In this document: in pieces, positions 1 to 31,422 of the stretch
How the letters are laid out: each line of letters opens with the position of its first letter
Numbering within the stretch: position 1 is the stretch's first letter
From: a virus
Reading direction: 5' to 3' (one strand)
Virus record (IMG/VR): IMGVR_UViG_3300017978_000047
Location: 1-31,422 of that record
DNA: 31,422 nt
Made by a program: the position numbers and the translations under genes
Notes under the pieces: model-generated
What the model was told of the DNA's origin: nothing
Seen by the model: the letters and a program-made list of their open reading frames with translations, nothing else
Databases searched by the model: none

Positions 1-55
1 CAAGATGTAGAAACAATGGTAGATTATAATTTAAAAGATATAAAATAAAATGATA
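1..55. repeat. terminal direct repeat, copy 1 (identical to 31368..31422); circular-assembly overlap
   Basis: The first 55 nt (caagatgtagaaacaatggtagattataatttaaaagatataaaataaaatgata) recur exactly as the last 55 nt. The repeat covers the end of ORF 30873..31415 and the ATG of ORF 50..1108, so the ends join without disrupting genes. Confidence 0.95.
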
Positions 56-3105: not shown

Positions 3106-3251
3106 TAAAAGAAATATTGAATCTGTTAATGTTAGACAATCATTACGGACAAACCGAAACAATAGAAATAGCAAAAGGCAAGTACGAACTACCTAATAGT
3201 TGGTCAAAAGGATTTAACCAAATAAAAAGAATAATTAAATGGCAGAAGTAA
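3102..3251 (+). CDS. small hypothetical protein (49 aa)
   Basis: MIKEILNLLMLDNHYGQTETIEIAKGKYELPNSWSKGFNQIKRIIKWQK. Its ATG overlaps the upstream stop (ATGA at 3102..3105) and its stop overlaps the tape-measure start by 13 nt. It fills an otherwise 133-nt gap. It is below the ORF-track length cutoff. Confidence 0.4.
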   Translation: MIKEILNLLMLDNHYGQTETIEIAKGKYELPNSWSKGFNQIKRIIKWQK

Positions 3252-5122
3252 AAACGATAGAACTTCATATTAAATCAAACGTAGATACTGCATCTAAAGA
3301 ATTTGATAATTTTGCGAAGTCGATAAAAGCAGTAGATAAATCTGCTACAAATTTAGATGCCACTTTTGAAGAAGTTTATGGTGACTTACAACCATTAACA
3401 ACAAGAATGGGTGAAGCTGAAGATAGGCTTTATGAATTAGCTTTAGCAGGACAACAAAGTTCACAAGAATTTAAAGATTTGTTGACATCTGTAGGTAACT
3501 ATAGAAGAGTACAAATTCAAACTGATATGGTTGTAGATAATGCTGCAACTACATTAAGTCAAAAACTTACTGGTTCATTAAATGCTGCTGCAGGTGCTTT
3601 TAGTTTGGTTCAAGGTTCTATGGCTTTGTTCGGTGCTGAATCTGAAGATGTAGAACAAGCTATATTAAAAGTACAATCTGCAATGGCTATTAGTCAAGGT
3701 GTAGAAACTATTAGAGAGGGTGCGAAAAGTGTACAAGCATTAGGTGCTGCAATACGTTCTACAACTGTATTTCAAAAAGCTGCTGCTGCTGCTCAATACG
3801 TTTGGAATGCTGCTATGGCTGCCAATCCTATTGGTTTAGTAGTTGCTTCTATTGCTGCATTATTAGTTGGTGGATATAAGCTTATTAAATTCTTTAAAGA
3901 TTCATCTGATGCAAATGAAAAAGCAGCTTCTGCTACTATAAAAAATACAAATGCTTTAAAACAGCAAAGTATTTCTGCTGCACAAAGTTCTAATAAGTTA
4001 AAAACTTATAATGACCAACAGTATGCAATGGCTCAAGCTTCAGGAGCGTCAAGTGAAGAGTTAAGAAAGTTGGCTTTAAAACACAAAGAAGAAGAAGTTG
4101 CTTTAAATAAAAAGAATGCTATTTTAGCACAAAGCACATTTTTAAGACAACGTGATACATTAGCTTCTTTAAAAAACTCTGAAGCAAGTGATGAGGTAAT
4201 TGCTAATCAAGAAAAGTTAGTTCAAGAAACTTACAAATCATTTAAAAAGCAAAATGAAATACTTTCTACTTCTTATAAAGAACGTGCTGCATTAAGAAAC
4301 GCAAACGCAGTAGGTGAAGTTGCTGATGCTAAAGCAGCATCTGATAAAGCTGCTGAAGACGCTAAAGCAGCAAGAGAAAAAAGATTAGCTGAACAAAAAG
4401 AAGCTGATGAAAAAGCAAAAGAAAAAGTTAAAAAAGACCAAGAAGAATTTAATCAGTTTCAAATAAAAATAAACGAAGCCAAGTCAGCACAAAATATTGC
4501 TGATATGGAAGCTAAAGAAACAAAGATTAATGACCTTTTTGAAATAGCTAATGTAGTTGATGAATTAGAAACTAAAAATACTGAAAAGTTAAAAGCAGAA
4601 ACTGATGCAAGAATAGAACTTGCTAAAAAAGAAAAAGAAGCTAAAATACAAGCTGCTGAAGCTGCTGCTACTACATTATCAGGATTAGCTGATTTATTAG
4701 GTAAAGAAACTGCTGCAGGAAAAGCTGCGGCTGTAGCAAGTGCAACTATATCTACATTTTTATCTGCACAAAAAGCTTATGAATCTACTGTAGGTATTCC
4801 AATTGTAGGACCTGTATTAGCACCTATCAATGCTGCTTTAGCTATTGCAGGTGGTATTAAATCTGTTAAGTCTATTTTGTCTGTTAAAACACCAAATGGC
4901 GGTGGTGGTGGTTCAGCACCTACTATTAATGCACCTGCAGGTGGTTCTGCTCCTGTAGCCGCTGCTCCTACATTTAACGTAGTTGGTACTTCAGGACAAA
5001 ACCAGATCGCTCAAAGTTTAGGCAATCAAGCACCTGTTAAAGCTTATGTAGTAAGTAACGATGTAACTACTGCACAAAGTTTAGATAGAAATATTGTGAA
5101 CACAGCTACTATAGGAAATTAA
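3239..5122 (+). CDS. tape measure protein (candidate)
   Basis: 627 aa. The centre is a long Ala/Lys/Glu-rich coiled-coil-like stretch (AEDAKAAREKRLAEQKEADEKAKEKVKK). It has hydrophobic segments (NPIGLVVASIAALLVGGY; GIPIVGPVLAPINAALAIAGGI) and a C-terminal Gly run (NGGGGGS). This is the usual tape-measure architecture. Confidence 0.65.
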   Translation: MAEVKTIELHIKSNVDTASKEFDNFAKSIKAVDKSATNLDATFEEVYGDLQPLTTRMGEAEDRLYELALAGQQSSQEFKDLLTSVGNYRRVQIQTDMVVDNAATTLSQKLTGSLNAAAGAFSLVQGSMALFGAESEDVEQAILKVQSAMAISQGVETIREGAKSVQALGAAIRSTTVFQKAAAAAQYVWNAAMAANPIGLVVASIAALLVGGYKLIKFFKDSSDANEKAASATIKNTNALKQQSISAAQSSNKLKTYNDQQYAMAQASGASSEELRKLALKHKEEEVALNKKNAILAQSTFLRQRDTLASLKNSEASDEVIANQEKLVQETYKSFKKQNEILSTSYKERAALRNANAVGEVADAKAASDKAAEDAKAAREKRLAEQKEADEKAKEKVKKDQEEFNQFQIKINEAKSAQNIADMEAKETKINDLFEIANVVDELETKNTEKLKAETDARIELAKKEKEAKIQAAEAAATTLSGLADLLGKETAAGKAAAVASATISTFLSAQKAYESTVGIPIVGPVLAPINAALAIAGGIKSVKSILSVKTPNGGGGGSAPTINAPAGGSAPVAAAPTFNVVGTSGQNQIAQSLGNQAPVKAYVVSNDVTTAQSLDRNIVNTATIGN

Positions 5123-5159
5123 CAAAAACCAAATAATTTAATTTATAAATAAAAATAAA

Positions 5160-5744
5160 ATGCGAATAGTAGAATTAATCATAGACGAAAAAGAAGATTT
5201 GAGTGGTGTAGAAGCTATTTCAGTTGTAGAATTTCCTGCAATAGAAGAAAACTTCATAGCACTTAATCAACAATTACAACTTGCTAAAGTAGATGAAGAA
5301 AAGCGTATCTTAATGGGTGCGGCTTTAATTCCAAATAAAAACATCTACAGAAGAAATGGCGATGATGAGTATTACATTTTCTTTTCAGATGCAACTGTAA
5401 AAAAAGCAAGTGAATTATTCTTGATGAATAGCAACCAAAACAACGCTACATTAGAACACCAAAAAAAGATAAATGATTTGTCAGTAGTTGAATCTTGGAT
5501 TGTAGAAGATACTGAAATGGATAAGTCTAAAAAGTATGGTTTAAATGCACCAGTAGGTTCTTGGATGGTTTCAATGAAAGTAAATAATGATACTATTTGG
5601 AATGACTTTGTTAAAACAGGTAAGGTTAAAGGCTTTTCTATTGAAGGTTATTTTGCAGACAAATTAGAAATGAGTTTGCAAAAAGAACAAGAGCAAGAAT
5701 TGATTGAAAAGATTAAACAAATTATTGTAAAACATAATCTATAA
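5160..5744 (+). CDS. XkdF-like putative prohead protease domain protein
   Basis: 194 aa. The pattern LMGAALIPN...YYIFFS...ATLEHQ...VVESWIVED...GSWMVSMKV...WNDFVKTGKVKGFSIEGYF matches my memory of the PBSX XkdF / Peptidase_S78_2 family. It lies upstream of the scaffold and capsid genes. Confidence 0.5.
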   Translation: MRIVELIIDEKEDLSGVEAISVVEFPAIEENFIALNQQLQLAKVDEEKRILMGAALIPNKNIYRRNGDDEYYIFFSDATVKKASELFLMNSNQNNATLEHQKKINDLSVVESWIVEDTEMDKSKKYGLNAPVGSWMVSMKVNNDTIWNDFVKTGKVKGFSIEGYFADKLEMSLQKEQEQELIEKIKQIIVKHNL

Positions 5745-6046
5745 TGAAAATTAGTTTTGACTATGACGGAACTTTAAGTACTGCTAAAGGTACTGAAATG
5801 GCAAAAGAATTTATTGCTAAAGGTAAAGATGTTTATATCATTTCTGCAAGACATTTAAAAGTAGGAATGATTAATAAAGCACAATCTTTAGGAATACCTG
5901 TTAGTAGAGTTTATGCTACAGGTTCAAACAAAGCTAAAATTGAAAAAATTCAAAGTTTAGGAATAGAAGAGCATTACGATAATAACAAAGATGTAATAGA
6001 TATACTAAATCAATTAGGTATAAATGGTAAATTATTTAACAACTAA
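5744..6046 (+). CDS. minimal HAD-superfamily phosphatase
   Basis: 100 aa. HAD motif I is FDYDGTLS (DxDxT), motif II is IISAR, with a lysine in SNKAK and an acidic motif HYDNNKD. The ATG overlaps the upstream stop (TAATG). Confidence 0.6.
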   Translation: MKISFDYDGTLSTAKGTEMAKEFIAKGKDVYIISARHLKVGMINKAQSLGIPVSRVYATGSNKAKIEKIQSLGIEEHYDNNKDVIDILNQLGINGKLFNN

Positions 6047-6059
6047 AATAAATAAACTA

Positions 6060-6242
6060 ATGGGTAAATCAACAAGTCCGAAAGGCGGTAAAAGAGGTTG
6101 TCTTTGTAAAGATAACACGTATGATTCTAAATGCTGTAATGGTGAATTGCAAGAACAAGGAATTGGTTCAACTATATCACAAGGTGGTGCTACTATCACT
6201 GTAGTTGATGGTGTAAAAACTATTGTTAGAAGTAACGGATAA
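6060..6242 (+). CDS. small Cys-rich hypothetical protein (60 aa)
   Basis: MGKSTSPKGGKRGCLCKDNTYDSKCCNGELQEQG... carries four Cys arranged as CxC...CC. I prefer the ATG at 6060 over the track start at 6024, which overlaps the HAD gene by 23 nt. Confidence 0.5.
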   Translation: MGKSTSPKGGKRGCLCKDNTYDSKCCNGELQEQGIGSTISQGGATITVVDGVKTIVRSNG

Positions 6243-6302
6243 CATCCTAATTTATAACAAATAAAAATAATATTATTTATAAACAAATTAAATATTTTAA
6301 AA

Positions 6303-6887
6303 ATGAGTGTAATCAATGAAATCAAAACTCTTTTGGGAATGGAAGTGAAACTTGCCCAAATGAAACTTGAGAACGGCACGGTAATCGAAGCAGAAGCTTT
6401 TGAACCTGAAATGGCTGTTTTTATAGTTAACGAAGAAGATAGAATTGCAATGCCTGTAGGTGAATACGCTTTAGAAGATGGAAACATCCTAAAAGTAGAC
6501 GTTGAAGGTGTTATTGCTGCTATTGAAATGCCTGAAGAGGAAATGCCAGCAAACGAAGAAGAAGTACCTTCACCTGCTGAAGAAGAAGTTGTTGTTGAAG
6601 CATCTGCTCCTGTAGCTACTCCTAAAAGAATCGTTGAATCTGTTTCTAAAGAAATGTTCTTTTCTGAAATTGAAAAATTAAGAAATGAAATTGCTGAATT
6701 GAAAGGTGTAAAACTTTCTTCTGATGAAGAAGACAAAACTGATGAGGATTTAAAGTCTAAAGAAGTTGAATTAAGTGTTGAACCATTAACACATTCACCT
6801 GAAGTTAAAGCACCACAAGTTCAAAAATTTGCATCTAATCGCCAAATGACTACTCAAGATAGAGTAATGGCAAAACTTTTTAATTAA
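6303..6887 (+). CDS. scaffolding protein (candidate)
   Basis: 194 aa and strongly acidic (PEEEMPANEEEVPSPAEEEVVVE), with helical-looking segments. It lies immediately upstream of the major capsid gene. Confidence 0.6.
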   Translation: MSVINEIKTLLGMEVKLAQMKLENGTVIEAEAFEPEMAVFIVNEEDRIAMPVGEYALEDGNILKVDVEGVIAAIEMPEEEMPANEEEVPSPAEEEVVVEASAPVATPKRIVESVSKEMFFSEIEKLRNEIAELKGVKLSSDEEDKTDEDLKSKEVELSVEPLTHSPEVKAPQVQKFASNRQMTTQDRVMAKLFN

Positions 6888-6911
6888 TAATAATAAACTA
6901 AATAAATAAAA

Positions 6912-7865
6912 ATGGCTACTACTACAAGTATTACTACCACTTATGCAGGAGAATTTGCTTCTAAATATATCTCTGCTGCTTTATTATCTGCTTCTACTAT
7001 TGAAAATGGTGGAATTGAGGTAATGCCTAATGTTAAGTACAAATCTGTAATTCAAAAAATTGCTACTGATGGTATCGTTAAAGATGCTACTTGTGATTTT
7101 TCTGCTACATCTACTGTAACATTAAGCGAAAGAATCATCACTCCTGAAGAATTCCAAGTGAATCTTCAATTGTGTAAAAAAGATTTCCACGCAACTTGGG
7201 AAGCTGTATCTATGGGATATTCTGCTTTTGATTCATTGCCACCAAGCTTTGCTGATTATTTGATTTCTCACGTTGCTGCTAAAGTTGCTGAAAAAACTGA
7301 ACAAAACATTTGGAGAGGTGCTACTGCTAATGCAGGTGAATTTAATGGATTTGCTGCTTTATTAGCTGCTGATGCTGCTTTGCCAACTGCTAATGAAGTT
7401 GCTGGTACTACAGTTACTGCTTCTAACGTTGTTGCTGAATTAGGGAAAATCGTTGATGCTATTCCTGCTGCATTGTACGGAAAAGAAGATTTGTACTTAT
7501 ACGTTTCTCAAAACATTGCAAGAGCTTACGTTCGTGCTTTAGGTGGATTTGGTGCTTCAGGATTAGGTGCTAACGGTACAAACGCTCAAGGAACACAATG
7601 GTTTAACAATGGTTCATTATCTTTTGATGGTGTTAAAATCTTTGTTGCAAACGGATTGGCTAACAATACTGCTATTGCTGCTCAAAAATCTAACTTATTC
7701 TTTGGAACTGGTTTGTTGTCGGATCAGAATGAAGTACAAGTTATTGATTTACAGCCAATTGACGGTTCTATGAACGTGAGAGTGGTAATGAGATTTACTG
7801 CTGCAGTTCAATACGGAATTGTTGAAGATATCGTAACTTACGGAATCACAAACTCTGCTAACTAA
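6912..7865 (+). CDS. major capsid protein
   Basis: 317 aa and Ala/Gly-rich. It follows the scaffold gene and is followed by a strong intrinsic terminator. Codon usage looks like that of a highly expressed gene. The assignment rests on position and composition. Confidence 0.7.
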   Translation: MATTTSITTTYAGEFASKYISAALLSASTIENGGIEVMPNVKYKSVIQKIATDGIVKDATCDFSATSTVTLSERIITPEEFQVNLQLCKKDFHATWEAVSMGYSAFDSLPPSFADYLISHVAAKVAEKTEQNIWRGATANAGEFNGFAALLAADAALPTANEVAGTTVTASNVVAELGKIVDAIPAALYGKEDLYLYVSQNIARAYVRALGGFGASGLGANGTNAQGTQWFNNGSLSFDGVKIFVANGLANNTAIAAQKSNLFFGTGLLSDQNEVQVIDLQPIDGSMNVRVVMRFTAAVQYGIVEDIVTYGITNSAN

Positions 7866-7888
7866 AAATTAGCTTTTTAAATTAAAAA

Positions 7889-7918
7889 GGGGAGGTAAAA
7901 TGCCTTCCCTTTTTTTTT
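7889..7918 (+). terminator. rho-independent terminator after the capsid gene
   Basis: Stem GGGGAGG (7889..7895) pairs with CCTTCCC (7903..7909) with one G-U pair. The loop is 7 nt and is followed by T9 (7910..7918). Confidence 0.8.
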
Positions 7919-7942
7919 ATTAACTTTTAAAAATATATATAG

Positions 7943-8470
7943 ATGGCTTGTGAAATTTCATTAGGTAGAATTGAACCTTGCAAAGATAGCAATGGTGGAT
8001 TAAAAGCGGTTTACTTTGTAAACTGGGGTGATATGACAGGTGTAACTTATGACGTAACTAATACAGATGCTATTAGTGCGGTTGCAGGTACTCCAAGTGC
8101 ATACAAATATGACTTGAAAGGTAATAGTTCATTTGAACAAGCAATTACTTCTTCAAGAGAAAATGGAACTACATTCTTTGAACAAACTTTGAACTTAACT
8201 TTAAAGAAATTGTCTATTGTAGACCACAAACAAATTAAATTATTAGCTTACGGAAGACCACAAGTAGTTGTTGAAGATAACAACGGAAACTTGTTCTTGT
8301 GTGGATTAGAACACGGAATGGATGTATCGGGTGGTACTATTGTAACCGGAGCAGCTATGGGTGATTTGTCAGGATATACTTTGACATTATCAGGACAAGA
8401 AGCAGTTCCTGCAAACTTCTTGAGTACTACTTTAACCGCTGCAGGTTTCACAGTAGTTTCAGGTTCATAA
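7943..8470 (+). CDS. abundant virion protein, candidate major tail tube protein
   Basis: 175 aa, bracketed by two strong terminators. The pattern GGLKAVYF...FEQ...FFEQTLNLTL...VVVEDNNGNLFLCGLEHG...GDLSGYTLTLSG resembles siphovirus tail tube proteins as I recall them. A capsid decoration role is not excluded. Confidence 0.4.
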   Translation: MACEISLGRIEPCKDSNGGLKAVYFVNWGDMTGVTYDVTNTDAISAVAGTPSAYKYDLKGNSSFEQAITSSRENGTTFFEQTLNLTLKKLSIVDHKQIKLLAYGRPQVVVEDNNGNLFLCGLEHGMDVSGGTIVTGAAMGDLSGYTLTLSGQEAVPANFLSTTLTAAGFTVVSGS

Positions 8471-8496
8471 TTGTTTGTTTTTTGATTGGTGAAAAG

Positions 8497-8521
8497 GGGT
8501 GGCTTCGGCTACCCTTTTTTT
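8497..8521 (+). terminator. rho-independent terminator
   Basis: Stem GGGTGGC (8497..8503) pairs with GCTACCC (8508..8514), with a TTCG tetraloop, followed by T7 (8515..8521). Confidence 0.8.
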
Positions 8522-8537
8522 GTTTTAAATAACAATA

Positions 8538-8550
8538 AACGAATAGATTT
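8538..8550 (+). promoter_or_regulatory. candidate late-gene box AACGAATAGATTT
   Basis: One of three intergenic matches to AACG[TA]A[TA]AGA[TA][GT]T (the others are 11225..11237 and 29528..29540). It lies just after a terminator and 21 nt before the ATG at 8571. Confidence 0.25.
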
Positions 8551-8570
8551 ATTATTAAATAAAAAATATA

Positions 8571-8900
8571 ATGATAATCTTAAAAGAACAAGAAGCTGCA
8601 CAAGTTTTAAAATTCATACCACGTAGTTATGGAGCAGATACTATTGTATTAAGAAACGAAACTACCAATGAAGTACAGACTATTTCTGCATCATTTGCTT
8701 TAGATAAATATTATTTGACAACTACTACTGCTTTTGATTTATTGCAGAATACATTTTATAATTTAACTATCAAAAATGGTGCTGAAGTAGTTTACAAAGA
8801 TAAAGTGTTTTGTACTAATCAAAATATAGTTAACTATACAGTCAACAAAGATGAATACGTAGCAAACGCTACAAATAACGATTTTATAATTTATGAGTAA
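8571..8900 (+). CDS. hypothetical protein (head module)
   Basis: 109-aa ORF with an A-rich leader. It overlaps the portal gene start by 8 nt. Confidence 0.7.
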   Translation: MIILKEQEAAQVLKFIPRSYGADTIVLRNETTNEVQTISASFALDKYYLTTTTAFDLLQNTFYNLTIKNGAEVVYKDKVFCTNQNIVNYTVNKDEYVANATNNDFIIYE

Positions 8901-10680
8901 TATATCAATTGTAAATTTAAGTGCTTATACAAGCCCTGTAATTCAAGAAAACAAGAAGTCAGACTACATTGAGTATGGAGTAGATAATAACTACTTTCAA
9001 TACTTAATAGATAGGTATTTATATTCAGCTACAAACAATGCTATTATCACTGGTGTAACCAATATGATTTATGGTAAAGGATTGGATGCATTAGATTCTA
9101 ATCGTAAACCTAATGAATATGCACAGATGCGTAGTATTATTAAAGGTGATATGTTAAAGAAGGTAGCTATGGAGCGTAAAATGCTTGGAATGGGTGCAAT
9201 GCAAGTTGTAATGGAAAAAGGCAAAGTTAAATCTATTGACCATTTCCCAATGAATACATTAAGAGCAGAAAAGTGTAATGATAAAGGAGAAATTGAAGCT
9301 TGGTACTATTACCCTGATTGGACTAAAAAGAAGCCTTCTGAAAAAGCTAAAAGAATTCCTGCATTTGGATTCGGAAATGGTAATGAAGTTGAAATGTATG
9401 TGGTACATCCTTATGTTAGTGGATTTCATTATTACACACCTATTGATTATTCAGGTGCTTTACCTTATGCTAAATTAGAAGAAGAAATTAGTGATTACTT
9501 GATTAATGATGTTCAAAACGGATTTTCAGGAACTAAAGTAATCAACTTTAACAATGGTATTCCTTCTGAAGAAATGCGTGACCAGATCAAGCGTGATGTA
9601 TTAGGTAAATTAACAGGTTCAAGAGGTGAAAAAGTAATTGTTGCTTTTAACGCTAATGCAGAATCTAAAACTACTGTAGAAGATATACCTTTAAATGATG
9701 CTCCTGCACATTATGAATATTTAAGTACTGAATGTTTTGAAAAGTTAATTGTAGGGCATAGAGTTACTTCGCCAATGCTTTTGGGTATTCGTGATACAGG
9801 TGGTGGATTAGGTAACAATGCAGATGAAATTAAAACTGCTACTTTGTTATTTGACAATATTGTAATTAAACCTTACCAATTGGAATTGATTAATGCTATT
9901 GATGAAATTTTAGCAGTAAATGATATTAGCTTAAAATTATACTTCAAAACTATTCAACCTTTAGAATTTGTAGATACTTCAGGAATGAATGCTGAAACTG
10001 CTGAAGAAGAAACTGGTGTAAAGATGAGTTCTGAAAAAATTTGTTGTTCAAGCGACAAAGATTTTACAGATGAAGAAGGTAATAGAATGTTAGATTATTT
10101 AGAAGGTGAAAATATAGATGAAGAATGGGAATTGGTAGATAAAAGACAATATTCAGATTCAAATGAAAGTATTGAAGAATGGGCTAATTCTAAAATAAAC
10201 AAAAAAGAAAATTTATTTCAAAAATTAGCTGGTGTTGTTAAATCTAATTCTTCTGCTAAAAGCTATTTAGATAAAGATACTTACAAAGTAAGATATGAAT
10301 ATTCTGAAATTAACGGAACTGATAGAGATAAATCACGTGATTTTTGTAAACAAATGATGGGTAGAACTGAAAGAGGTGTTGTTTATAGAAAAGAAGATAT
10401 AGACCAAGCAAGTTTTGCAGGTGTTAATAATGAATTTGGACACAATAAACAAAATTATTCTTTATGGTTATACGCTGGTGGGGTTTATTGTCACCATTTT
10501 TGGAATGAAAATCTTTACAGATTAAAAACTAAAACAGATGGACAACCTTATGTAGATAAATCTTTAGCATCAAGCGAAGAAGTTAGTTCTATTTCAGGTT
10601 ACAATCCTAATCCAAGTGGTTTAGCTACAGCACAAACTGCACCAATTAATAGAGCAGGTAGAGGTGAATACCCAAGTTAA
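8893..10680 (+). CDS. portal protein with a C-terminal MuF/SPP1 gp7-like Cys/His-containing domain (candidate fusion)
   Basis: 595 aa, the only large non-tail protein in the head module. An acidic linker lies around aa 365..420 (ETAEEETGVKMSSEKICCSSDKDFTDEEG). The C-terminal part (RDFCKQMMGRTERGVVYRKEDI...GGVYCHHFWN) resembles the conserved core of phage head-morphogenesis MuF-type proteins. Confidence 0.55.
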   Translation: MSNISIVNLSAYTSPVIQENKKSDYIEYGVDNNYFQYLIDRYLYSATNNAIITGVTNMIYGKGLDALDSNRKPNEYAQMRSIIKGDMLKKVAMERKMLGMGAMQVVMEKGKVKSIDHFPMNTLRAEKCNDKGEIEAWYYYPDWTKKKPSEKAKRIPAFGFGNGNEVEMYVVHPYVSGFHYYTPIDYSGALPYAKLEEEISDYLINDVQNGFSGTKVINFNNGIPSEEMRDQIKRDVLGKLTGSRGEKVIVAFNANAESKTTVEDIPLNDAPAHYEYLSTECFEKLIVGHRVTSPMLLGIRDTGGGLGNNADEIKTATLLFDNIVIKPYQLELINAIDEILAVNDISLKLYFKTIQPLEFVDTSGMNAETAEEETGVKMSSEKICCSSDKDFTDEEGNRMLDYLEGENIDEEWELVDKRQYSDSNESIEEWANSKINKKENLFQKLAGVVKSNSSAKSYLDKDTYKVRYEYSEINGTDRDKSRDFCKQMMGRTERGVVYRKEDIDQASFAGVNNEFGHNKQNYSLWLYAGGVYCHHFWNENLYRLKTKTDGQPYVDKSLASSEEVSSISGYNPNPSGLATAQTAPINRAGRGEYPS

Positions 10681-10697
10681 TAAATTATAAAAAAGAT

Positions 10698-11198
10698 ATG
10701 GCACAAGCATTATTTGTCACAAGAGAAGATATAGTAAAATTTACAGCAATGAATGGAAACGTTGACACGGATAAATTCATTCAATTTGTAAAGATTGCAC
10801 AAGATATACATATTCAAAACTATTTAGGTTCAAAGCTGTTTAATAAAATAAACGATGCAATTGTAGCGGGTACTTTAGCAAGTCCATATACAACGCTTTT
10901 AAGCCAATATATTAAGCCAATGGTAATACACTTCGCTATGGTAGAGTATTTGCCTTTTGCGGCTTATACAATAGCTAATAAAGGTGTATTTAAACATAAT
11001 AGTGAGAATAGCACAAACGTAGAAAAGAATGAAGTAGATTTCTTGATTGAAAAAGAAAGAGATATTGCACAACACTACACAAATAGGTTTATAGATTATA
11101 TGAGTTATAATCAAGCATTATATCCTGAATATAATACTAATTCAAATGGTGATATGTTCCCTGATTCAGAAGCAAATTTTATAGGATGGGTAATATAA
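10698..11198 (+). CDS. putative head-tail connector/adaptor protein
   Basis: 166 aa. The N-terminal pattern VTREDIVKFTAMNGNVDTDKFIQFVKIAQDIHIQNYLG resembles gp6-like head-tail connector proteins. It follows the portal gene. Confidence 0.35.
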   Translation: MAQALFVTREDIVKFTAMNGNVDTDKFIQFVKIAQDIHIQNYLGSKLFNKINDAIVAGTLASPYTTLLSQYIKPMVIHFAMVEYLPFAAYTIANKGVFKHNSENSTNVEKNEVDFLIEKERDIAQHYTNRFIDYMSYNQALYPEYNTNSNGDMFPDSEANFIGWVI

Positions 11199-11224
11199 AA
11201 GAAACTTACAAACCAAAACAAACT

Positions 11225-11237
11225 AACGTAAAGAAGT
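11225..11237 (+). promoter_or_regulatory. candidate late-gene box AACGTAAAGAAGT
   Basis: Second match to the AACG[TA]A[TA]AGA[TA][GT]T pattern. It is intergenic, 35 nt upstream of the ATG at 11272. Confidence 0.2.
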
Positions 11238-11271
11238 TAGAGTTATTTTTAAATAAAATAAAAGATAAAAA

Positions 11272-11610
11272 ATGAGTTTACAATTTACACATATAAAAGG
11301 GGACACTTTTGATGAGGTTGCTTTTCAATTAAAGATTAACGATACAGTTGTTAATTTAACAGGTGCAACTATTAAAATGCAGTTACGCAAATGTTATTCA
11401 GATACTGCTGCTGCTTTATCTCTTACTTCAGTTTCTTCTGCAGGTATTACTATTACAAATGCCACAAATGGAGAATTTAAAATTAACACACAAATTATAG
11501 ACATTCCTGTTTACAATTATGTTTATGACATACAAATTACTTTAGCGAGTGGAGTAGTTAAAACGTATGTACAAGGTGGGTTCAATATTACTAACGAAGT
11601 AACAAGATAA
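11272..11610 (+). CDS. hypothetical beta-rich structural protein
   Basis: 112-aa ORF directly upstream of the tail fibre gene. Its alternating beta-type pattern (VNLTGATIKMQL...GITITNATNGEFKI) suggests an Ig-like fold. Confidence 0.65.
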   Translation: MSLQFTHIKGDTFDEVAFQLKINDTVVNLTGATIKMQLRKCYSDTAAALSLTSVSSAGITITNATNGEFKINTQIIDIPVYNYVYDIQITLASGVVKTYVQGGFNITNEVTR

Positions 11611-11614
11611 AAAA

Positions 11615-14164
11615 ATGGGTGATGATATTACTATTGGTGTAACTGAAATTGTAAACAATATTGAAGTTACTGCACAACCAAACGACCAAATCGTAGATAT
11701 TAGTGTAATTGACAATACAGATGAAGTTACTTTAAACATAACACCTACTGTAATTGAAATCAATGTAAATAAAGGTTCTTCTTTTGCTAAATGGGGTGAC
11801 ATATTAGGCACACTATCAGACCAAGAAGATTTACAAGATGCTTTAGATTTAAAAGCTGATTTAGTTGATGGTAAAGTACCTTCTTCACAATTACCTTCTT
11901 ACGTTGATGATGTTATTGAAGTAGCTAATTACGCTGCTTTACCTGTTACAGGTGAGTCAGGAAAGATATATATCACTATTGATAACAATCATATCTTTAG
12001 ATGGACAGGTTCTATTTATGTAGAAATTACGGATAATACTGCAGTTTGGGGTGCAATTACGGGAACATTAAGTTCACAGACTGATTTAGTTACTGCTTTA
12101 AATTTAAGAGTACCTTATACGGGTGCTACAGGTGATGTTAATTTAGGAACATACGATATTAAAGCACAAAAGTATTGGATGTTAGATGAAGTAAATTCTA
12201 ACTATGGTTCAATGCACTTTACTGATGGTAATTATCATATTGAAGATGCTGATGGTCACAAGTTATTTGTTATTGAGGATGGATTTATGCAATTACATAA
12301 AACCGATACAATACAATCAAACCTATATACAAGTAATTTAACTGCAGTTCGAGACCATTATTTGCCTGATGCAAGTGGTACTTTGGCTTTAGATGAAAAT
12401 GTAGTACATAAAACGGGTGATGAAACTATTAGTGGTAGAAAGACTTTTAATAGTACTACCGACATTGGTATTCGTTCTAATATTAGCGGAAATGGATATG
12501 GTATTTATTCAGAAAATAGTTCTAATGGTATTTCTTTTTATGTAGCTAATAATGGTTCAGGAAAAGCATTTAGTGTATCTAACACACTTGGCTCTTTTGG
12601 TAATATGTATGAAGGTTCTTATAATGGAACTTCTAATTTTGCGGTTAATTATTTAGGTGAAATTACTGCAAGTAAATTTATTAAATCAGGTGGTACTGCT
12701 TTTGAATTCTTAAAAGCTAATGGTGATGTAGATAGCAACATATATTTCAAAGGTTCTGTTACTGCGGGGTATCTTCCAAAAAGTTTATATCCATCAAGTG
12801 GGGATTTCACTACGAGTTTAATTTATGACGATGGTACAAATATAGGAATTGGCACAACAAGTCCGAGTGGATTGCTTCATTTGCAAGGAAATTCAACAAG
12901 CCCTATCACACAAATAATTGACAATTTAAATGCGGGAACTTCAGCAGGAACAAGAATTTCATTTAGATATCAAGGAACTGAAACAGCGTATATTTATAAT
13001 AGATTTAATGGTGGGGATTTTAATACAGATATAGGTTCTGCTGATTATTTAAGAATATTAACAGCGGGTTCTGAAAAGATGCGTATTTTAACAAATGGCA
13101 ACGTAGGTATCGGTACAACAAATCCAAGTGAAAAATTAACGTTAACAAATGGTAAGTTATTTTTAACAGAAGCAGACCCTACTATTGGTGGTAAAATATA
13201 TGGTTATAATGATACTTCTACTGATTTGTATGGAGGTGGATTAAAATTCCAATCAAGATATTATGATGGTGCTAATTATGTTTATGCTGATAGATTAACT
13301 ATAAAAGGAAGCGGTAACGTAGGTATCGGAACAACAAGTCCGAGTGCTAAATTAGATGTTAATGGAATATTTAGGAGCATTGTAACAAGTATTAGTTCAA
13401 CAGGTGAAATTTCAGCAAAAATATTAGGTTATCCAACAAGTCCTTTCGGTTTAATTTTTAGAAGTTATTCTTCAGGAGCAACTTCTATTCAATCACAAAG
13501 AGAAGCTAATGATTCAGAATTTTTTTCATTATCATTGCAACCTAATGGTGGCAACGTTGGAATTGGCACAACAAGTCCTTCGACAATATGTCATTTATAT
13601 AAAGCATCTTTTCCAATATTAACTATTCAAAGTAGTTCTTATCAATCATCTTTGGGTATTGACACTACATCGGGTAATTTAGTTTTAAACAATGAAAGTA
13701 ACGCTCCTTTAAGTTTTAATACAAATGCTACAGAACGTATGCGTATCACTTCAGGTGGTAATGTTGGTATTGGAACTACAAGTCCTTCATTTCAATTACA
13801 ATTATCAAATGATTCAGCAGCTAAACCGGGTTCTCCATTATGGACAGTATCTTCTGATATTAGAATAAAAGAAAATGTAAGACCTTATACAGATGGTTTA
13901 GAAAAGTTAATGCAAGTTAATCCTGTTTACTATGATTATAATGGTAAAGCAGGGTTTTCAATAACTAAAGATAACGTAGGTATAATTGCTCAAGAAATGC
14001 AAGAAGTATTACCTAATACTATAAAGACATTTAAAGCTAAACTTAACGATGATGATGAGGAAGAAACAGAACTATTAAGTTTTAATGCAAATGAAATTAT
14101 ATACGTTCTTATAAATTCAGTAAAAGAACTAAAAGCAGAAATAGAAATTTTAAAAAATAAATAA
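11615..14164 (+). CDS. tail fibre protein with C-terminal intramolecular chaperone (peptidase S74) domain
   Basis: 849 aa with five in-frame copies of GN(V/I)GIGTT(S/N)PS. The C-terminus (SSDIRIKENVRPYTDGLEKLMQVNPVYYDYN...VGIIAQEMQEVLPNTI...ELKAEIEILK) is the signature of the endosialidase-type auto-cleaving chaperone domain. Confidence 0.85.
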   Translation: MGDDITIGVTEIVNNIEVTAQPNDQIVDISVIDNTDEVTLNITPTVIEINVNKGSSFAKWGDILGTLSDQEDLQDALDLKADLVDGKVPSSQLPSYVDDVIEVANYAALPVTGESGKIYITIDNNHIFRWTGSIYVEITDNTAVWGAITGTLSSQTDLVTALNLRVPYTGATGDVNLGTYDIKAQKYWMLDEVNSNYGSMHFTDGNYHIEDADGHKLFVIEDGFMQLHKTDTIQSNLYTSNLTAVRDHYLPDASGTLALDENVVHKTGDETISGRKTFNSTTDIGIRSNISGNGYGIYSENSSNGISFYVANNGSGKAFSVSNTLGSFGNMYEGSYNGTSNFAVNYLGEITASKFIKSGGTAFEFLKANGDVDSNIYFKGSVTAGYLPKSLYPSSGDFTTSLIYDDGTNIGIGTTSPSGLLHLQGNSTSPITQIIDNLNAGTSAGTRISFRYQGTETAYIYNRFNGGDFNTDIGSADYLRILTAGSEKMRILTNGNVGIGTTNPSEKLTLTNGKLFLTEADPTIGGKIYGYNDTSTDLYGGGLKFQSRYYDGANYVYADRLTIKGSGNVGIGTTSPSAKLDVNGIFRSIVTSISSTGEISAKILGYPTSPFGLIFRSYSSGATSIQSQREANDSEFFSLSLQPNGGNVGIGTTSPSTICHLYKASFPILTIQSSSYQSSLGIDTTSGNLVLNNESNAPLSFNTNATERMRITSGGNVGIGTTSPSFQLQLSNDSAAKPGSPLWTVSSDIRIKENVRPYTDGLEKLMQVNPVYYDYNGKAGFSITKDNVGIIAQEMQEVLPNTIKTFKAKLNDDDEEETELLSFNANEIIYVLINSVKELKAEIEILKNK
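12833..13789 (+). repeat. five tandemly spaced coding repeats inside the tail fibre gene
   Basis: Motif starts are at 12833, 13097, 13313, 13550 and 13757, all in frame and spaced 207..264 nt. Each encodes G(T/N)N(I/V)GIGTT(S/N)PS followed by xKLxL/V-type residues. Confidence 0.85.
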
Positions 14165-23972: not shown

Positions 23973-23987
23973 CTATCCTTTTTTTTT
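23960..23987 (+). terminator. rho-independent terminator
   Basis: Stem GGGTAGC (23960..23966) pairs with GCTATCC (23972..23978) with one G-U pair. The loop is AATTA and is followed by T9. Confidence 0.75.
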
Positions 23988-27405: not shown

Positions 27406-27687
27406 ATGATATTAAATGATTATACTATGGAAGATAAAAGAAAATTCAACGGTGGTAATAAAAACGCAGGCAGAAAGCCTAAAGCAGAAGAGGTAGCTTT
27501 AATTGAGAAGTTAACTCCATTAGAACCATTAGCATTTGCAGCATTGGAAAAAGGATTAGAGAAGGGTGATTTTAAATTCACTCAATTGTTCTATAACTAT
27601 TATGCAGGTAAACCAAGAGAAACAAAAGATGTAACTCTTACAACAGAGCAACCTATATTCAACTTAGAAGATTTAGGAGACATATAA
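27406..27687 (+). CDS. terminase small subunit (candidate)
   Basis: 93 aa, directly upstream of terL. It has a basic N-terminus (FNGGNKNAGRKPKAEE). The assignment is by position only, and an alternative start exists at 27427. Confidence 0.4.
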   Translation: MILNDYTMEDKRKFNGGNKNAGRKPKAEEVALIEKLTPLEPLAFAALEKGLEKGDFKFTQLFYNYYAGKPRETKDVTLTTEQPIFNLEDLGDI

Positions 27688-27696
27688 GCAACGATA

Positions 27697-28863
27697 ATGG
27701 AATTCATAGTAACTACAGCTTTAAAGAAGTTATTGCGTCTTAAAAAGCGTATAAAGGTTGTTAGAGGCGGTACATCTGCTTCCAAGACCTTTTCTATTTT
27801 GCCTATATTAATAGATAGAGCAATTAAGACACCAAATTTAGAGATTAGTGTAGTATCTGAATCTATACCGCATTTACGTAGAGGAGCTTTAAAAGACTTC
27901 TTAAAAATAATGATGGCATTGGGTAGGTATAACGATAATCAATTTAATAAGTCTACTCTAAAGTATGTATTTGGCAATGGTAGTTATATTGAATTCTTTT
28001 CAGTTGATCAACCTGATAAATTAAGAGGGGCGAGAAGGAATGTTCTATATGTGAATGAGTGTAACAATGTAGACTTCGATTCATATTATCAATTAGCTAT
28101 TAGAACGAGTGGAGAGATATGGTTAGATTATAACCCATCAAGTTTATTTTGGGTAGATAAAGAAATAATATCTCAGGATGACGTAGATTTTATCACGTTA
28201 ACATATTTGGATAATGAAGCATTACCTGAAACAATTGTAAAAGAAATTGAATCAGCTAAGGTTAAAGCATTGACTTCAGCTTATTGGGCAAATTGGTGGC
28301 AAGTATATGGGTTAGGATTAACAGGATCATTGGAAGGTGTGTGTATTCCTGATTGGCAAGAAATCAATTTACCAAACGAAGCACGTTTATTATGTTATGG
28401 TATGGACTGGGGTTATTCAAACGACCCAACAAGTTTAATTGCAATGTACAAATACAATGATGCTTATATATTTGATGAATTAATATATCAGAAAGGTTTA
28501 TTGAATTCAGACATTAGTGATTTATTAAAAACAAATGGTGTTCAAGATATAATCTATGCTGATAGTGCTGAACCAAAATCAATAGCTGAATTAAATAGTT
28601 ATGGTCACAATGTGTTACCTGTAAGCAAAGGCAGAGATAGTATCGTATATGGTTTGAATTTAATTAATCAAAACAAAGTTTATGTAACATCAAGAAGCAA
28701 GAATTTAATCAATGAATTGCGAAATTATATTTGGATGACAGATAAACAAGGTAATAAATTAAACAAACCTATTGATGCTTACAATCACGCTATAGATGCA
28801 ATGCGTTACGCTATAACATCACAGTTAGAAAATACAAACAAAGGTACATATTACGTTTATTAA
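27697..28863 (+). CDS. terL: terminase large subunit (PBSX/TIGR01547-like)
   Basis: Walker A is VVRGGTSASKT and the Walker B region is VLYVNECNNV. The nuclease-domain motifs are GMDWGYSNDPTSL, YADSAEPKSI and AYNHAIDAMRYA. Confidence 0.9.
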   Translation: MEFIVTTALKKLLRLKKRIKVVRGGTSASKTFSILPILIDRAIKTPNLEISVVSESIPHLRRGALKDFLKIMMALGRYNDNQFNKSTLKYVFGNGSYIEFFSVDQPDKLRGARRNVLYVNECNNVDFDSYYQLAIRTSGEIWLDYNPSSLFWVDKEIISQDDVDFITLTYLDNEALPETIVKEIESAKVKALTSAYWANWWQVYGLGLTGSLEGVCIPDWQEINLPNEARLLCYGMDWGYSNDPTSLIAMYKYNDAYIFDELIYQKGLLNSDISDLLKTNGVQDIIYADSAEPKSIAELNSYGHNVLPVSKGRDSIVYGLNLINQNKVYVTSRSKNLINELRNYIWMTDKQGNKLNKPIDAYNHAIDAMRYAITSQLENTNKGTYYVY

Positions 28864-29673: not shown

Positions 29674-30351
29674 ATGAAGATAGAATTAACAATACCAACT
29701 TCACTATCAGAAATAAAGTTGGTGCAGTATCAAAAGTTTTTAGCTATTGCAAAAGACAATGAAGAAAGTGAATTCTTGCAGCAGAAAATGGTGCAATTGT
29801 TTTGTGGTATAGATTTAAAAGATGTGGCACAGATTAGATATAAAGATGTAGCTGAAATTACTGCTAACATTAACAATCTATTCAACAAAGAAAATAGGTT
29901 TATACAACGCTTTAAAATGGGTGGTGTAGAGTTTGGATTCATACCTAACCTTGATGAGATGTCTACAGGTGAATATATGGATTTGGATAATTACATTACT
30001 GATTGGGACACTATGCATAATGCAATGGCTGTATTGTATAGACCAATTACAAATAAGTTAGGAAACAAATACGAGATAGAACAATATCAAGGTTCTATTA
30101 CATATGCTGATGTAATGAAACACGCACCATTGGATGTGGTTCTTGGTGCTATGGTTTTTTTTTACAATTTAGGGAACGACTTATTAAGCAGTACGATAAA
30201 CTATTTGGAGGAGAATCCGGAGGTGCAGAATATTCTGAACAAGCACAATTTGGAAAACGTTGGGGATGGTATTCAAGTATCTATGCTCTTGCTCAAGGAA
30301 ACGTTAGAAGATTTGATGAAGTTTCCAAGTTACCCGTACACCAAAGTTTAA
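29674..30351 (+). CDS. tail assembly chaperone, frame-0 product (225 aa)
   Basis: The pattern FGFIPNLDEMSTGEYMDLDNYITDWDTMHNAMAVLYRPI resembles tail assembly chaperone families. It contains a T9 slippery tract with an open -1 frame downstream. Confidence 0.6.
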   Translation: MKIELTIPTSLSEIKLVQYQKFLAIAKDNEESEFLQQKMVQLFCGIDLKDVAQIRYKDVAEITANINNLFNKENRFIQRFKMGGVEFGFIPNLDEMSTGEYMDLDNYITDWDTMHNAMAVLYRPITNKLGNKYEIEQYQGSITYADVMKHAPLDVVLGAMVFFYNLGNDLLSSTINYLEENPEVQNILNKHNLENVGDGIQVSMLLLKETLEDLMKFPSYPYTKV

Positions 30352-30416
30352 CTTGGTTGACTTTTGAAAAAGAAAAGACTGATATAGAAATGAAATTAAT
30401 AAATAAAAATAAGTAA
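29674..30416 (+). CDS. tail assembly chaperone, -1 shifted long form (join 29674..30162 and 30162..30416; 247 aa)
   Basis: After the slip the reading is ...MVFF-LQFRERLIKQYDKLFGGESGGAEYSEQAQFGKRWGWYSSIYALAQGNVRRFDEVSKLPVHQSLTWLTFEKEKTDIEMKLINKNK. Its TAA (30414..30416) overlaps the ATG of the next gene (TAATG). Confidence 0.55.
30155..30163 (+). other. T9 slippery tract (T_TTT_TTT at 30156..30162): candidate -1 ribosomal frameshift or transcriptional slippage site
   Basis: Frame 0 reads ATG GTT TTT TTT TAC. The -1 frame is open from 30111 to 30416 with no start codon in its first 82 codons. Confidence 0.6.
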
Positions 30417-30871
30417 TGAAAGGATTTTACCAAATAAGCCAAGCAATCAAAGACCAATTAGATGCTGATGCTTTTGTAAATACTGTTACCATTGGTGATA
30501 TATTCAAAGTAGACTTGAACAAGCAGACTATATTCCCTTTGTCACATATAATGATTAATTCAGCAGCTTATAACGGAAGTACTTTTAACTATAGTATTTC
30601 TGTTTTATGTATGGATATTGTAGATGAATCTAAAGAAGAAGTAGAAGATATATTTGTAGGTAATGACAACGAGCAGGATGTGTTAAATACACAACAAATG
30701 GTTGCAACAAGATTACTTGAAATGTTAAGGCGTGGTGATTTATTTGATGATGGTTACCAACTGCAGGATGGTGCAAGTATAGAATACTTTGTAGACAGAT
30801 TTGAAAATAAGATTGCAGGAGTAACTGTTACTATGAATGTGATCGCACAAAATGATATGACTATTTGCTAA
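30416..30871 (+). CDS. putative tail completion / neck protein
   Basis: 151 aa. It sits between the chaperone and a gp10-like protein. The pattern QTIFPLSHIMINS loosely resembles DUF3168/gpU-like tail-completion proteins. Confidence 0.35.
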   Translation: MKGFYQISQAIKDQLDADAFVNTVTIGDIFKVDLNKQTIFPLSHIMINSAAYNGSTFNYSISVLCMDIVDESKEEVEDIFVGNDNEQDVLNTQQMVATRLLEMLRRGDLFDDGYQLQDGASIEYFVDRFENKIAGVTVTMNVIAQNDMTIC

Positions 30872-30872
30872 T

Positions 30873-31415
30873 ATGGCACAAGAATTAAAAGAAGTTCAAC
30901 AAGTATTAAAACGCTTTAAAGATTACGTTATACAACAGAGTAGAAGCAATCTATCTAAAGGCGGTAAGAACGTTTCTAAGGAGCTATATAATAGTTTGAA
31001 GGGTGAAATACTAACTGAAGATGATTATTCAATTGTGGGCTTCTCTATGGCTGAATATGGGGCTTACCAAGATCAAGGGGTTCGTGGTAAATCAAGTTCA
31101 TTAAAAGCGCCTAAAAGTCCATTTAGATTCGGATCAGGTACAGGTAAAAAAGGTGGTTTAACTAATAGCATATTAAAATGGGTACAAGCGAAAGGTTTTC
31201 AGTTCCGAAACAAAGAGAATGGGAAATTTATGAGTTACAAGCAGACAGGGTATCTTATATCTCGAAGTATTTTTCACAAAGGAATTAAACCAAGTTTATT
31301 TTTTACAAAACCTTTTGAAGCAGGATATAAGAAATACATAGACACTGATTTAATGAAGGCATTCGGTCAAGATGTAGAAACAATGGTAGATTATAATTTA
31401 AAAGATATAAAATAA
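30873..31415 (+). CDS. HK97 gp10-like head-tail joining protein (candidate)
   Basis: 180 aa. EYGAYQDQGVRG and GIKPSLFFTKPFE resemble the Y..y.E.G and p.pFl.PA motifs of the gp10 family. Its end lies in the terminal overlap, and the next gene starts 2 nt later across the junction. Confidence 0.45.
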   Translation: MAQELKEVQQVLKRFKDYVIQQSRSNLSKGGKNVSKELYNSLKGEILTEDDYSIVGFSMAEYGAYQDQGVRGKSSSLKAPKSPFRFGSGTGKKGGLTNSILKWVQAKGFQFRNKENGKFMSYKQTGYLISRSIFHKGIKPSLFFTKPFEAGYKKYIDTDLMKAFGQDVETMVDYNLKDIK

Positions 31416-31422
31416 AATGATA
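31368..31422. repeat. terminal direct repeat, copy 2 (identical to 1..55)
   Basis: Exact 55-nt identity with the window start. Confidence 0.95.

Follow-up and report, generated by a model that had tools for sequence, protein, structure and literature searches.

The -1 frameshift of the lambda G/GT-type tail assembly chaperone was reportedly described by Levin 1993 and by Xu, Hendrix and Duda 2004. Of the 2,476 genes annotated as frameshifted in the SEA-PHAGES genomes, 2,397 encode tail assembly chaperones (PMC10274946), and the lambda-type G/GT frameshift is known to be ribosomal, without the need for a stimulator (PMC5009743). A second route operates in transcription. Runs of nine A or T give rise to transcriptional slippage in bacteria, and in the Shigella genes spa13 and mxiE this slippage yields C-terminally extended products, the coding sequence overlapping the next gene (PMC5009743). 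Here we describe a gene at positions 29674-30416 of the IMG/VR virus record IMGVR_UViG_3300017978_000047, all 31,422 nucleotides of which were analyzed and are referred to below as the window. Taking the favored explanation as a whole, we think it likely that this is a two-product morphogenesis gene with programmed -1 recoding on a run of nine T (T9). The parts of the gene, on which the rest of the argument depends, are as follows.

29674 to 30351, plus strand: frame-0 open reading frame (ORF), the short form of 225 amino acids, comprising the N-terminal domain (N-domain, residues 1-163) and an acidic 62-residue tail
29674 to 30162, plus strand: coding region of the shared N-domain, 163 codons, common to both predicted products
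30155 to 30163, plus strand: slip site T9, with the in-phase heptamer T_TTT_TTT at 30156-30162
30162 to 30416, plus strand: -1 frame extension, 84 codons and TAA, a basic long tail with the motif F-G-K-R-W-G-W-Y
30163 to 30351, plus strand: dual-coding overlap, the same nucleotides being read as frame-0 tail and as -1 tail
30414 to 30418, plus strand: TAATG, the long-form stop overlapping the start of the next gene

The tract sits inside the frame-0 codons ATG GTT TTT TTT TAC (30151-30165). An open -1 frame of 101 codons runs from 30111 to the TAA at 30414-30416, and its first ATG, GTG or TTG is codon 82. A -1 shift at the tract would lead to a 247-amino acid product (…MVFFLQFRERL…) with 163 N-terminal residues in common with the 225-amino acid form, whose own stop at 30349-30351 lies 64 nucleotides upstream of the ATG at 30416. 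Past the tract, the two frames continue for 62 (frame 0) and 84 (-1) codons. When the synonymous codons of the -1 protein were resampled according to the genome's codon usage, 0.7% of trials left frame 0 open over 62 codons or more, and in the reciprocal resampling the -1 frame was open in 0.01% of trials. The predicted isoelectric points are 4.7 for the short form, 4.4 for the frame-0 tail and 9.3 for the -1 tail, and the same contrast between tails is seen in the more distant relative L086. The original prediction, made from the letters of the window, had given the coordinates and counts of the tract, the heptamer, the frames, the TAATG, the 64-nucleotide gap and the products of 225 and 247 amino acids, all of which were confirmed on the sequence. 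Two further T9 tracts occur in the window, at 7910-7918 and 23979-23987. Both are intergenic, lying between called ORFs, and do not look like further recoding sites.

Relatives were gathered from IMG/VR in two sets. The first holds 80 loci, 79 of them reaching the site, that are 67-95% identical to the window; the second holds 80 more divergent loci, 78 of them analyzable, found with an alignment of the P0131 group and 44-81% identical to P0131. T9 is present in the same codon register in 79/79 loci of the first set, with a frame-0 tail of mostly 62 codons (53-65 in a few) and a -1 tail of 81-85 codons. The second set comprises 37 T9 and 41 T10 loci in three codon registers, and all 78 have a short frame-0 tail of 55-58 codons and a long -1 tail of 83-87 codons, with the +1 frame closed after 1-5 codons in every locus. 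The overall tally among relatives is 123 loci with T9 and 38 with T10, and the in-phase heptamer is found in each register seen. The cultured Nonlabens phages P12024L/S share about 30% protein identity with the window and have T9 at the homologous codons CTT TTT TTT TAT, followed by a frame-0 tail of 25 codons and a -1 tail of 81 codons, the -1 frame reading …FFLSFRERL…FSLKWGWYHTF…. Intermediate clades (L086-L089) also carry T9, with frame-0 tails of 16-55 codons and -1 tails of 80-84 codons; N-domain identity to the window is 44% in L086 and 29% in L088. A search of bacterial genomes for a host matched a single contig from a metagenome-assembled genome (MAG), and the MAG contig L173, 88% identical, has T9, a frame-0 tail of 62 codons and a -1 tail of 83 codons.

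Conservation of the -1 frame in related phages, the lack of which the original prediction had named as refuting, was found throughout: in all relatives it is open for 80-87 codons, and its tail carries the W-G-W-Y motif. The nucleotide diversity of the T tract is 0 across 72 unique close relatives. The long-form stop and the next start overlap as TAATG or ATGA in 73 of 84 loci, and downstream synteny is kept in all relatives with sufficient flank. The -1 tail is 51% identical to that of the window in L086 (z = 37) and 29% identical in P12024L (z = 12), and the frame-0 tails of the window and L086 are 40% identical (z = 10). In the Nonlabens clade, the frame-0 tail is just 16-25 codons, and the long dual-coding overlap thus belongs to the window's large clade. 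With the split configuration, on T9 or T10, present in 157 IMG/VR loci and two isolates, the earlier proposal of recoding at the T tract with two products sharing an N-terminus stands, and we are highly confident that the recoding is real and programmed.

The original prediction had also held that the -1 frame cannot be an independent gene. In the window's clade, its first 82 codons are devoid of start codons, yet the tail is conserved from the tract onward (LQFRERL…), so the -1 tail is reachable solely by recoding at the tract. It might instead be a separate small protein, produced by termination-reinitiation or internal initiation and not as a fusion, as the annotation of P12024L/S could be taken to imply: the ATG that opens their gp41 (55 amino acids) overlaps the stop of gp40 (TAATG), and a Met codon is conserved nearby in L088. 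We regard this as very improbable. The window's clade lacks ATG, GTG and TTG in the first 82 of the 101 -1 codons while keeping the tail from the tract on, LQFRERL included, and in the Nonlabens phages the 25 -1 codons between the tract and the ATG are themselves open and homologous (FRERL…Y..L), with T9 itself retained.

Homopolymers invite sequencing error, and the database does contain a small number of proteins encoded as one fused ORF, on contigs whose tract is longer by one T (L003, L004 and L085). The true genome could then be one with T10 and a single 247-amino acid ORF, leaving the frame-0 tail meaningless, an artefact that we consider extremely unlikely. The split configuration, with T9 or T10, is found in 157/157 IMG/VR loci, two isolate genomes and one MAG, from many projects and platforms. 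The frame-0 tail is open for 55-62 codons even between clades that are 44% identical, it matches a PHROG profile past the tract, and it limits variation at the -1 wobble positions. Moreover, the fused contigs whose DNA was checked have no counterpart among the IMG/VR loci. An assembly error hiding T10, the refuting condition named with the original prediction, is excluded on these comparative grounds, the fused ORFs that were checked carrying one extra T.

The exceptions themselves are few. A protein search with the fused product returned 2,355 homologues, and nearly all of the best 120 are the 225-amino acid frame-0 form, with five singletons among the best 120 being fused ORFs of 246-250 amino acids. 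Two fused contigs, the short singletons L003 and L004, have T10 (1118-1127 and 1525-1534, respectively), and the proteins P0002 and P0112 imply tracts of T7 and T6. In L085, a scaffold of 24.9 kb that was reported for two samples, the tract at 8473-8483 is T11 and the long form is in frame, with the short-tail frame still intact. A "T11 clade" of inverted logic, in which the long form would be read directly and a +1 shift would be needed for the short form, was considered and rejected, as the L085/VFFF types are +1-T variants of the T10-type phages of the second set, of the same nature as T10 in a T9-type phage. Rare tract-length variants of this kind may be assembly errors or real minority genotypes arising from replication slippage.

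Other rearrangements of the region are seen at greater distances. Flavobacterium phage 6H (L091, KC959568; 10047-10927, minus strand) encodes a probable fold-level homologue, the 191-amino acid AGN89393.1, which ends in …CFFYSTR at its stop codon. The phage 6H tract is T6, with a TAG directly after it in the -1 frame, and the annotated 305-nucleotide "gap" after that TAG contains a 105-codon open -1 ORF. The distant relatives P0138, P0182, P0262 and P0266 have single ORFs that pass from the start of a short tail (FFY/FFW…L.N.L…) to long-tail sequence (…W-G-W-Y…) 5-25 codons past the tract, which suggests natural fusions or indels downstream of it.

Further evidence on the two tails comes from patterns of variation. 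The wobble position of the -1 frame falls on position 2 of the frame-0 codons, and this allows the two frames to be followed separately in the 72 unique relatives. The diversities below are given for frame-0 codon positions 1, 2 and 3, together with Nei-Gojobori estimates of synonymous divergence (pS) and of the nonsynonymous-to-synonymous ratio (pN/pS).

N-domain: diversity 0.15, 0.11 and 0.40; pS 0.57, pN/pS 0.23
Overlap: diversity 0.15, 0.20 and 0.23
Overlap read in frame 0: pS 0.26, pN/pS 0.69
Overlap read in frame -1: pS 0.25, pN/pS 0.72
Overlap read in frame +1 (control): pS 0.36, pN/pS 0.93
-1-only tail (30354-30413): diversity 0.14, 0.41 and 0.21; pS 0.56, pN/pS 0.30

The -1-only tail has normal coding periodicity, in the -1 frame, and together with its pN/pS of 0.30 this bears out the earlier view that the -1 frame encodes genuine protein. 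In the overlap, the wobble sites of both frames show roughly half the variability seen outside it. The independent divergent set gives a similar picture, the wobble diversity being 0.53 for the N-domain and 0.43 for the -1-only tail, against 0.34 (frame 0) and 0.28 (-1) in the overlap. Since wobble positions are suppressed in both frames, these alignments indicate that the overlap of about 190 nucleotides is truly dual coding, and the substitution pattern shows both tails to be under purifying selection. Dual coding had been proposed from the double-open stretch, which the resampling would attribute to chance at a rate of at most 0.7%. As a bacteriophage example of dual coding, the overlap is unusually long and well replicated.

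Individual motifs in the overlap need to be read with both frames in mind. W-G-W-Y and G-D-G-I, the best-conserved motif of each tail, share nucleotides at 30250-30275, where TGG GGA TGG TAT in the -1 frame is GGG GAT GGT ATT in frame 0. The frame-0 motif G-x-G-[I/T] was rejected as proof of selection on the short tail, being forced by the -1 codons TGG GGN TGG TAY, and the evidence used for that tail was its conserved open frame, its conserved end point and the suppressed -1 wobble sites. The near-invariant TTTAGG.AACGA just after the tract is accounted for by the two frames jointly, which read it as L-G-N-D (frame 0) and F-R-E-R (-1).

The family to which the gene belongs is large. The frame-0 product matches PHROG 32199 (E = 4.5e-20, profile positions 2-163 of 175), in an alignment that runs 13 residues past the tract in frame 0, and the short form scores 15 bits above the fused form. 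This PHROG has no assigned function and includes gp40 of the Nonlabens phages P12024L/S. In an exhaustive profile search, 3,030 clusters at 50% identity matched the N-domain family, 483 of them at E≤1e-30; most of the 3,030 match the N-domain alone and have short tails of their own. Every family member checked comes from a phage, contig or isolate, of Bacteroidota type. AlphaFold2 modeling of the fused form from a shallow alignment of seven sequences gives a confident alpha/beta N-domain over residues 1-173 (predicted local distance difference test score about 80-90), with one helix spanning the shift site and a helical long tail that is modeled without confidence. Foldseek against BFVD returned 41 significant matches, all to uncharacterized proteins of uncultured phages. 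The lone named match there was a "tail assembly chaperone" at rank 47 (E = 0.13), below the threshold, and a further sub-threshold hint came from phrog_166, "tail protein" (E = 0.05).

The genomic setting can be read around a circle. The last 55 nucleotides (31368-31422) are identical to the first 55 (1-55), and on the basis of this terminal repeat we take the window to be a complete circular phage genome of about 31,367 bp. The order of genes across the junction is confirmed by the related contig L004, and the ATG at 31418 is the start of the 352-amino acid ORF listed at 50-1108. The neighbors that matter most for the gene's interpretation are these.

27697 to 28863, plus strand: terminase large subunit (Pfam Terminase_3 and Terminase_3C, PHROG terminase families), upstream of the frameshifted gene
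30416 to 30871, plus strand: gene of 151 amino acids, PHROG 30964 (function unknown), orthologue of P12024L gp42
30873 to 31415, plus strand: gene of 180 amino acids, PHROG 29822, probably a neck or tail-completion protein, orthologue of P12024L gp43
3239 to 5122, plus strand: tape-measure-like gene of 627 amino acids, with weak matches to tape-measure PHROGs and to phrog_32985

On the circular map, the order is terminase small subunit (TerS), terminase large subunit (TerL), small ORFs, the frameshifted gene, and then the genes of 151, 180, 352, 665 and 627 amino acids. The 627-amino acid gene is followed by a prohead protease, a probable scaffold, a probable capsid, a portal and a tail fiber. 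Four genes thus lie between the frameshifted gene and the tape-measure-like gene, in agreement with the original observation that the two are not adjacent, and P12024L has the same order. P12024L gp43 matches phrog_5, "tail completion or Neck1 protein" (E = 4.2e-4), and, below the threshold, Pfam HK97-gp10_like (E = 0.03). The 627-amino acid protein matches tape-measure PHROGs weakly, at E of about 1e-6, and P12024L gp50, the founder of phrog_32985, matches the tape-measure phrog_9483 at 5.6e-12. The 352-amino acid neighbor consists of tandem Ig/FN3-like domains with generic matches. No tube protein was identified, that neighbor giving just Ig/FN3 matches; sequence searches of the Protein Data Bank (PDB) with the 352-, 665-, 627- and 180-amino acid proteins returned no match, and no other G/GT-like gene pair was found upstream of the tape-measure-like gene. 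The P12024 phages are presumably of siphovirus morphology.

The structural gene order is itself unusual (27406-28863, 29674-31415, 50-14164), running from TerS/TerL to neck and tail genes and then to protease, scaffold and capsid. The portal (8893-10680) is placed past the capsid gene and is followed by the tail fiber (11615-14164), an order that is identical in P12024L. The prohead protease (Pfam Peptidase_S78_2, 5160-5744) and a 194-amino acid ORF (6303-6887) correspond to the N- and C-terminal halves of PHROG 24921 (349 positions). The length of this PHROG matches the single 349-amino acid gp01 of P12024L, and in the window the protease and presumed scaffold are separate, with a 100-amino acid ORF between them. 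P12024L (L092 29868-30921) also has extra small genes directly upstream of its tape-measure-like gp50, namely gp47, with a T4 gp9/10-like N-terminus, gp48 and a 46-amino acid ORF, and counterparts of these three are absent from the window genome.

Several results weigh against the explanation favored here. At the slip site, no significant stimulatory RNA structure was found on the 3' side (folding of 30164-30263, z = 0.29 against shuffles), and Rfam gave no element there, just a spurious snoRNA match (E = 0.5). Members of the Nonlabens clade have an ATG at or close to the frame-0 stop, and a separate 55-amino acid tail protein is possible there in principle. The protein had no Pfam, NCBIfam or PDB sequence match (E up to 10 for Pfam and PDB profiles and up to 1 for NCBIfam), and it matched no named PHROG family significantly. 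The best Foldseek match in the PDB had E = 1.5, and an hhalign comparison with the annotated 250-amino acid chaperone of Flavobacterium phage FPSV-S2, which has the closest cultured terminase (55% identity), gave a probability of 0.7%. The canonical G/GT position, between the major tail protein and the tape measure, is not matched by a gene that follows terminase and precedes four other genes. Finally, the two forms differ little in length and the short one has a conserved tail of its own, whereas classic G ends soon after the shift.

As for how the two products might be made, standard decoding would give the 225-amino acid short form, with the N-domain and the acidic 62-residue tail, and a fraction of expression events would enter the -1 frame on the U run. 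This could occur if two tRNA-Phe re-pair one base back on U_UUU_UUU, or if RNA polymerase adds one extra U. Either route would produce the identical 247-amino acid long form, consisting of the N-domain and the basic 84-residue W-G-W-Y tail. Because the long form ends on the next gene's ATG, its ribosomes could couple straight into the 151-amino acid gene. We infer from the DNA that both proteins are actually made.

The features expected of both routes are present: the in-phase X_XXY_YYZ heptamer of a canonical -1 ribosomal site (T_TTT_TTT, 30156-30162) and the coding-strand A/T run of at least about nine that is associated with bacterial transcriptional slippage (T9; threshold from PMC5009743). 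The caution in the original prediction that a 9-nucleotide homopolymer allows either a ribosomal -1 shift or polymerase slippage was right, as both mechanisms fit equally well. The shift may well lie in transcription, with RNA polymerase slipping on T9/T10 (an A9/A10 template), a subpopulation of mRNA carrying an extra U, and a ribosomal shift that is minor or absent; we see this as a serious contender, if somewhat short of an even chance. The tract is 9 or 10 T long in about 160 loci, and no locus in the split configuration had T7, which would be enough for the heptamer alone; protein junctions imply T8 as the minimum (FFW forms). The lack of a detected stimulatory RNA element points the same way, as do the runs of nine A/T that slip in bacteria and the extended products of Shigella spa13 and mxiE, which overlap the next gene (PMC5009743) in a manner comparable to the TAATG geometry here. 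Yet the in-phase T_TTT_TTT, ideal for tandem re-pairing of tRNA-Phe, is likewise always there, and lambda-type G/GT shifts, which are ribosomal, need no stimulator either (PMC5009743). The neighboring residues dictate the two T's beyond the heptamer, V/L/I through codon position 2 and Y/W through codon position 1, so the tract length is not independent evidence, and any lean towards the polymerase is a weak one. We also know of nothing on slippage by a Bacteroidota RNA polymerase, which we count against a transcriptional shift. Judged from sequence features, ribosome-dominated and polymerase-dominated slippage appear equally plausible, neither reaching an even chance by itself, with a slim share left for something else.

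By analogy to lambda G/GT, the two products of the gene would act as an assembly chaperone pair for the neck/tail module. The common N-domain would bind a first partner, for which the tape measure is a plausible candidate, and the minor long form would gain a second specificity from the alternative tails. A G/GT-like chaperone role is, on this analogy, the most likely function, one that we favor slightly, and the statement concerns mode of action and not family membership. It is favored because the gene opens the neck/tail module and because conserved -1 two-product genes of tailed phages are mostly tail chaperones. The Neck1/tail-completion-like gene two genes downstream, the acidic short form and the absence of another chaperone candidate agree with it, and the conserved -1 shift with a shared N-terminus fits the G/GT pattern (about 160 loci and two isolates). 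The original prediction had called this a tail chaperone gene. As a statement of family identity, this did not hold up, as no sequence or fold search links the protein to a known chaperone family. Of its broader claim that the G/GT strategy is reproduced, the two-product -1 recoding stands, and the chaperone label comes down to analogy, context and the absence of another candidate.

The recoding may also be real and the protein some other bifunctional late protein, such as a neck or head-completion factor, a packaging accessory, or a regulator of downstream genes through translational coupling. The lack of homology to chaperone families or to PDB chaperone structures would fit such a protein, as would the gene's place directly after the terminase genes, the predicted 170-residue alpha/beta fold of the N-domain with no counterpart among solved structures, the dedicated tail on each isoform, and the overlap of the long-form stop with the next gene's start. 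Conserved -1 two-product genes in tailed phages are, however, overwhelmingly tail chaperones (PMC10274946), a tape-measure-like gene is present with no other candidate for its chaperone, and the neighbors are neck or tail genes. We therefore treat a non-chaperone function as possible but rather doubtful. A bolder proposal, which we consider unlikely, though not negligibly so, is that the gene represents an unrecognized class of phage assembly factor and not a divergent G/GT, in which polymerase-type slippage on T8-T10 selects between two oppositely charged C-terminal domains encoded in 170-190 nucleotides of dual-coding sequence, the minor isoform being coupled into the next gene.

Whichever function applies, the two-product gene appears to have gone unannotated. 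In P12024L/S, gp40 and gp41 are annotated as separate hypothetical proteins, and no description of the frameshift was found in the searchable literature on these phages or in the isolate annotation. The strategy is already known; it is this instance that is unannotated, even in isolates. It departs from the classic case in having a slip homopolymer long enough for the polymerase, a 55-62-codon dual-coding overlap with alternative tails, a non-canonical position and an unrelated fold. Gene callers systematically miss the long isoform, leaving the -1 tail uncalled in thousands of metagenomic contigs, and a rule as simple as "a T8-T10 tract after …FF and a -1 ORF with W-G-W-Y" would fix the annotation in a very abundant marine and freshwater phage group. 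Recoding of this kind is shared by a very large family of uncultured Bacteroidota phages. If the gene does encode a functional tail chaperone, the G/GT strategy can use an unrelated fold at a non-canonical position, and the short product can carry a tail domain of its own. A tract long enough for RNA polymerase slippage, together with a cultured host for one member, Nonlabens (Persicivirga) sp. IMCC12024 for P12024L, also offers a tractable test of translational versus transcriptional chaperone "frameshifts".

Set beside known systems, the gene resembles Shigella mxiE/spa13 and Thermus dnaX in having an A/T homopolymer of about nine in the coding sequence, where an extra nucleotide would lead to a C-terminally extended trans-frame product (PMC5009743), and it resembles spa13 further in that the extension overlaps the start of the next gene. 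Those cases were demonstrated by RNA sequencing (PMC5009743), whereas this one is known from DNA alone and its tract is also a perfect ribosomal heptamer; the host here is a member of the Bacteroidota, or the phage may encode its own transcription factors. With PHROG 32199, the relationship is one of direct membership, through the N-domain and the beginning of the frame-0 tail, although the PHROG covers the short ORF alone. Unlike lambda G/GT, the protein has no detectable sequence or fold homology to known chaperones, and the gene stands after terminase as the first of the neck/tail module, with the tape measure four to seven genes further downstream. Its slip site is a T8-T10 homopolymer, its short form runs on for 55-62 codons in a dual-coding overlap (16-25 in the Nonlabens clade), and the two products have oppositely charged alternative tails in place of "G" and "G plus an extension". 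Like lambda G/GT, it has a -1 shift at a slippery run in a late structural-module gene, two predicted products with a common N-terminus of which the short one is acidic, no need for a stimulatory structure and a tape-measure-like gene in the same phage, and the arrangement is kept despite protein divergence to about 30% identity.

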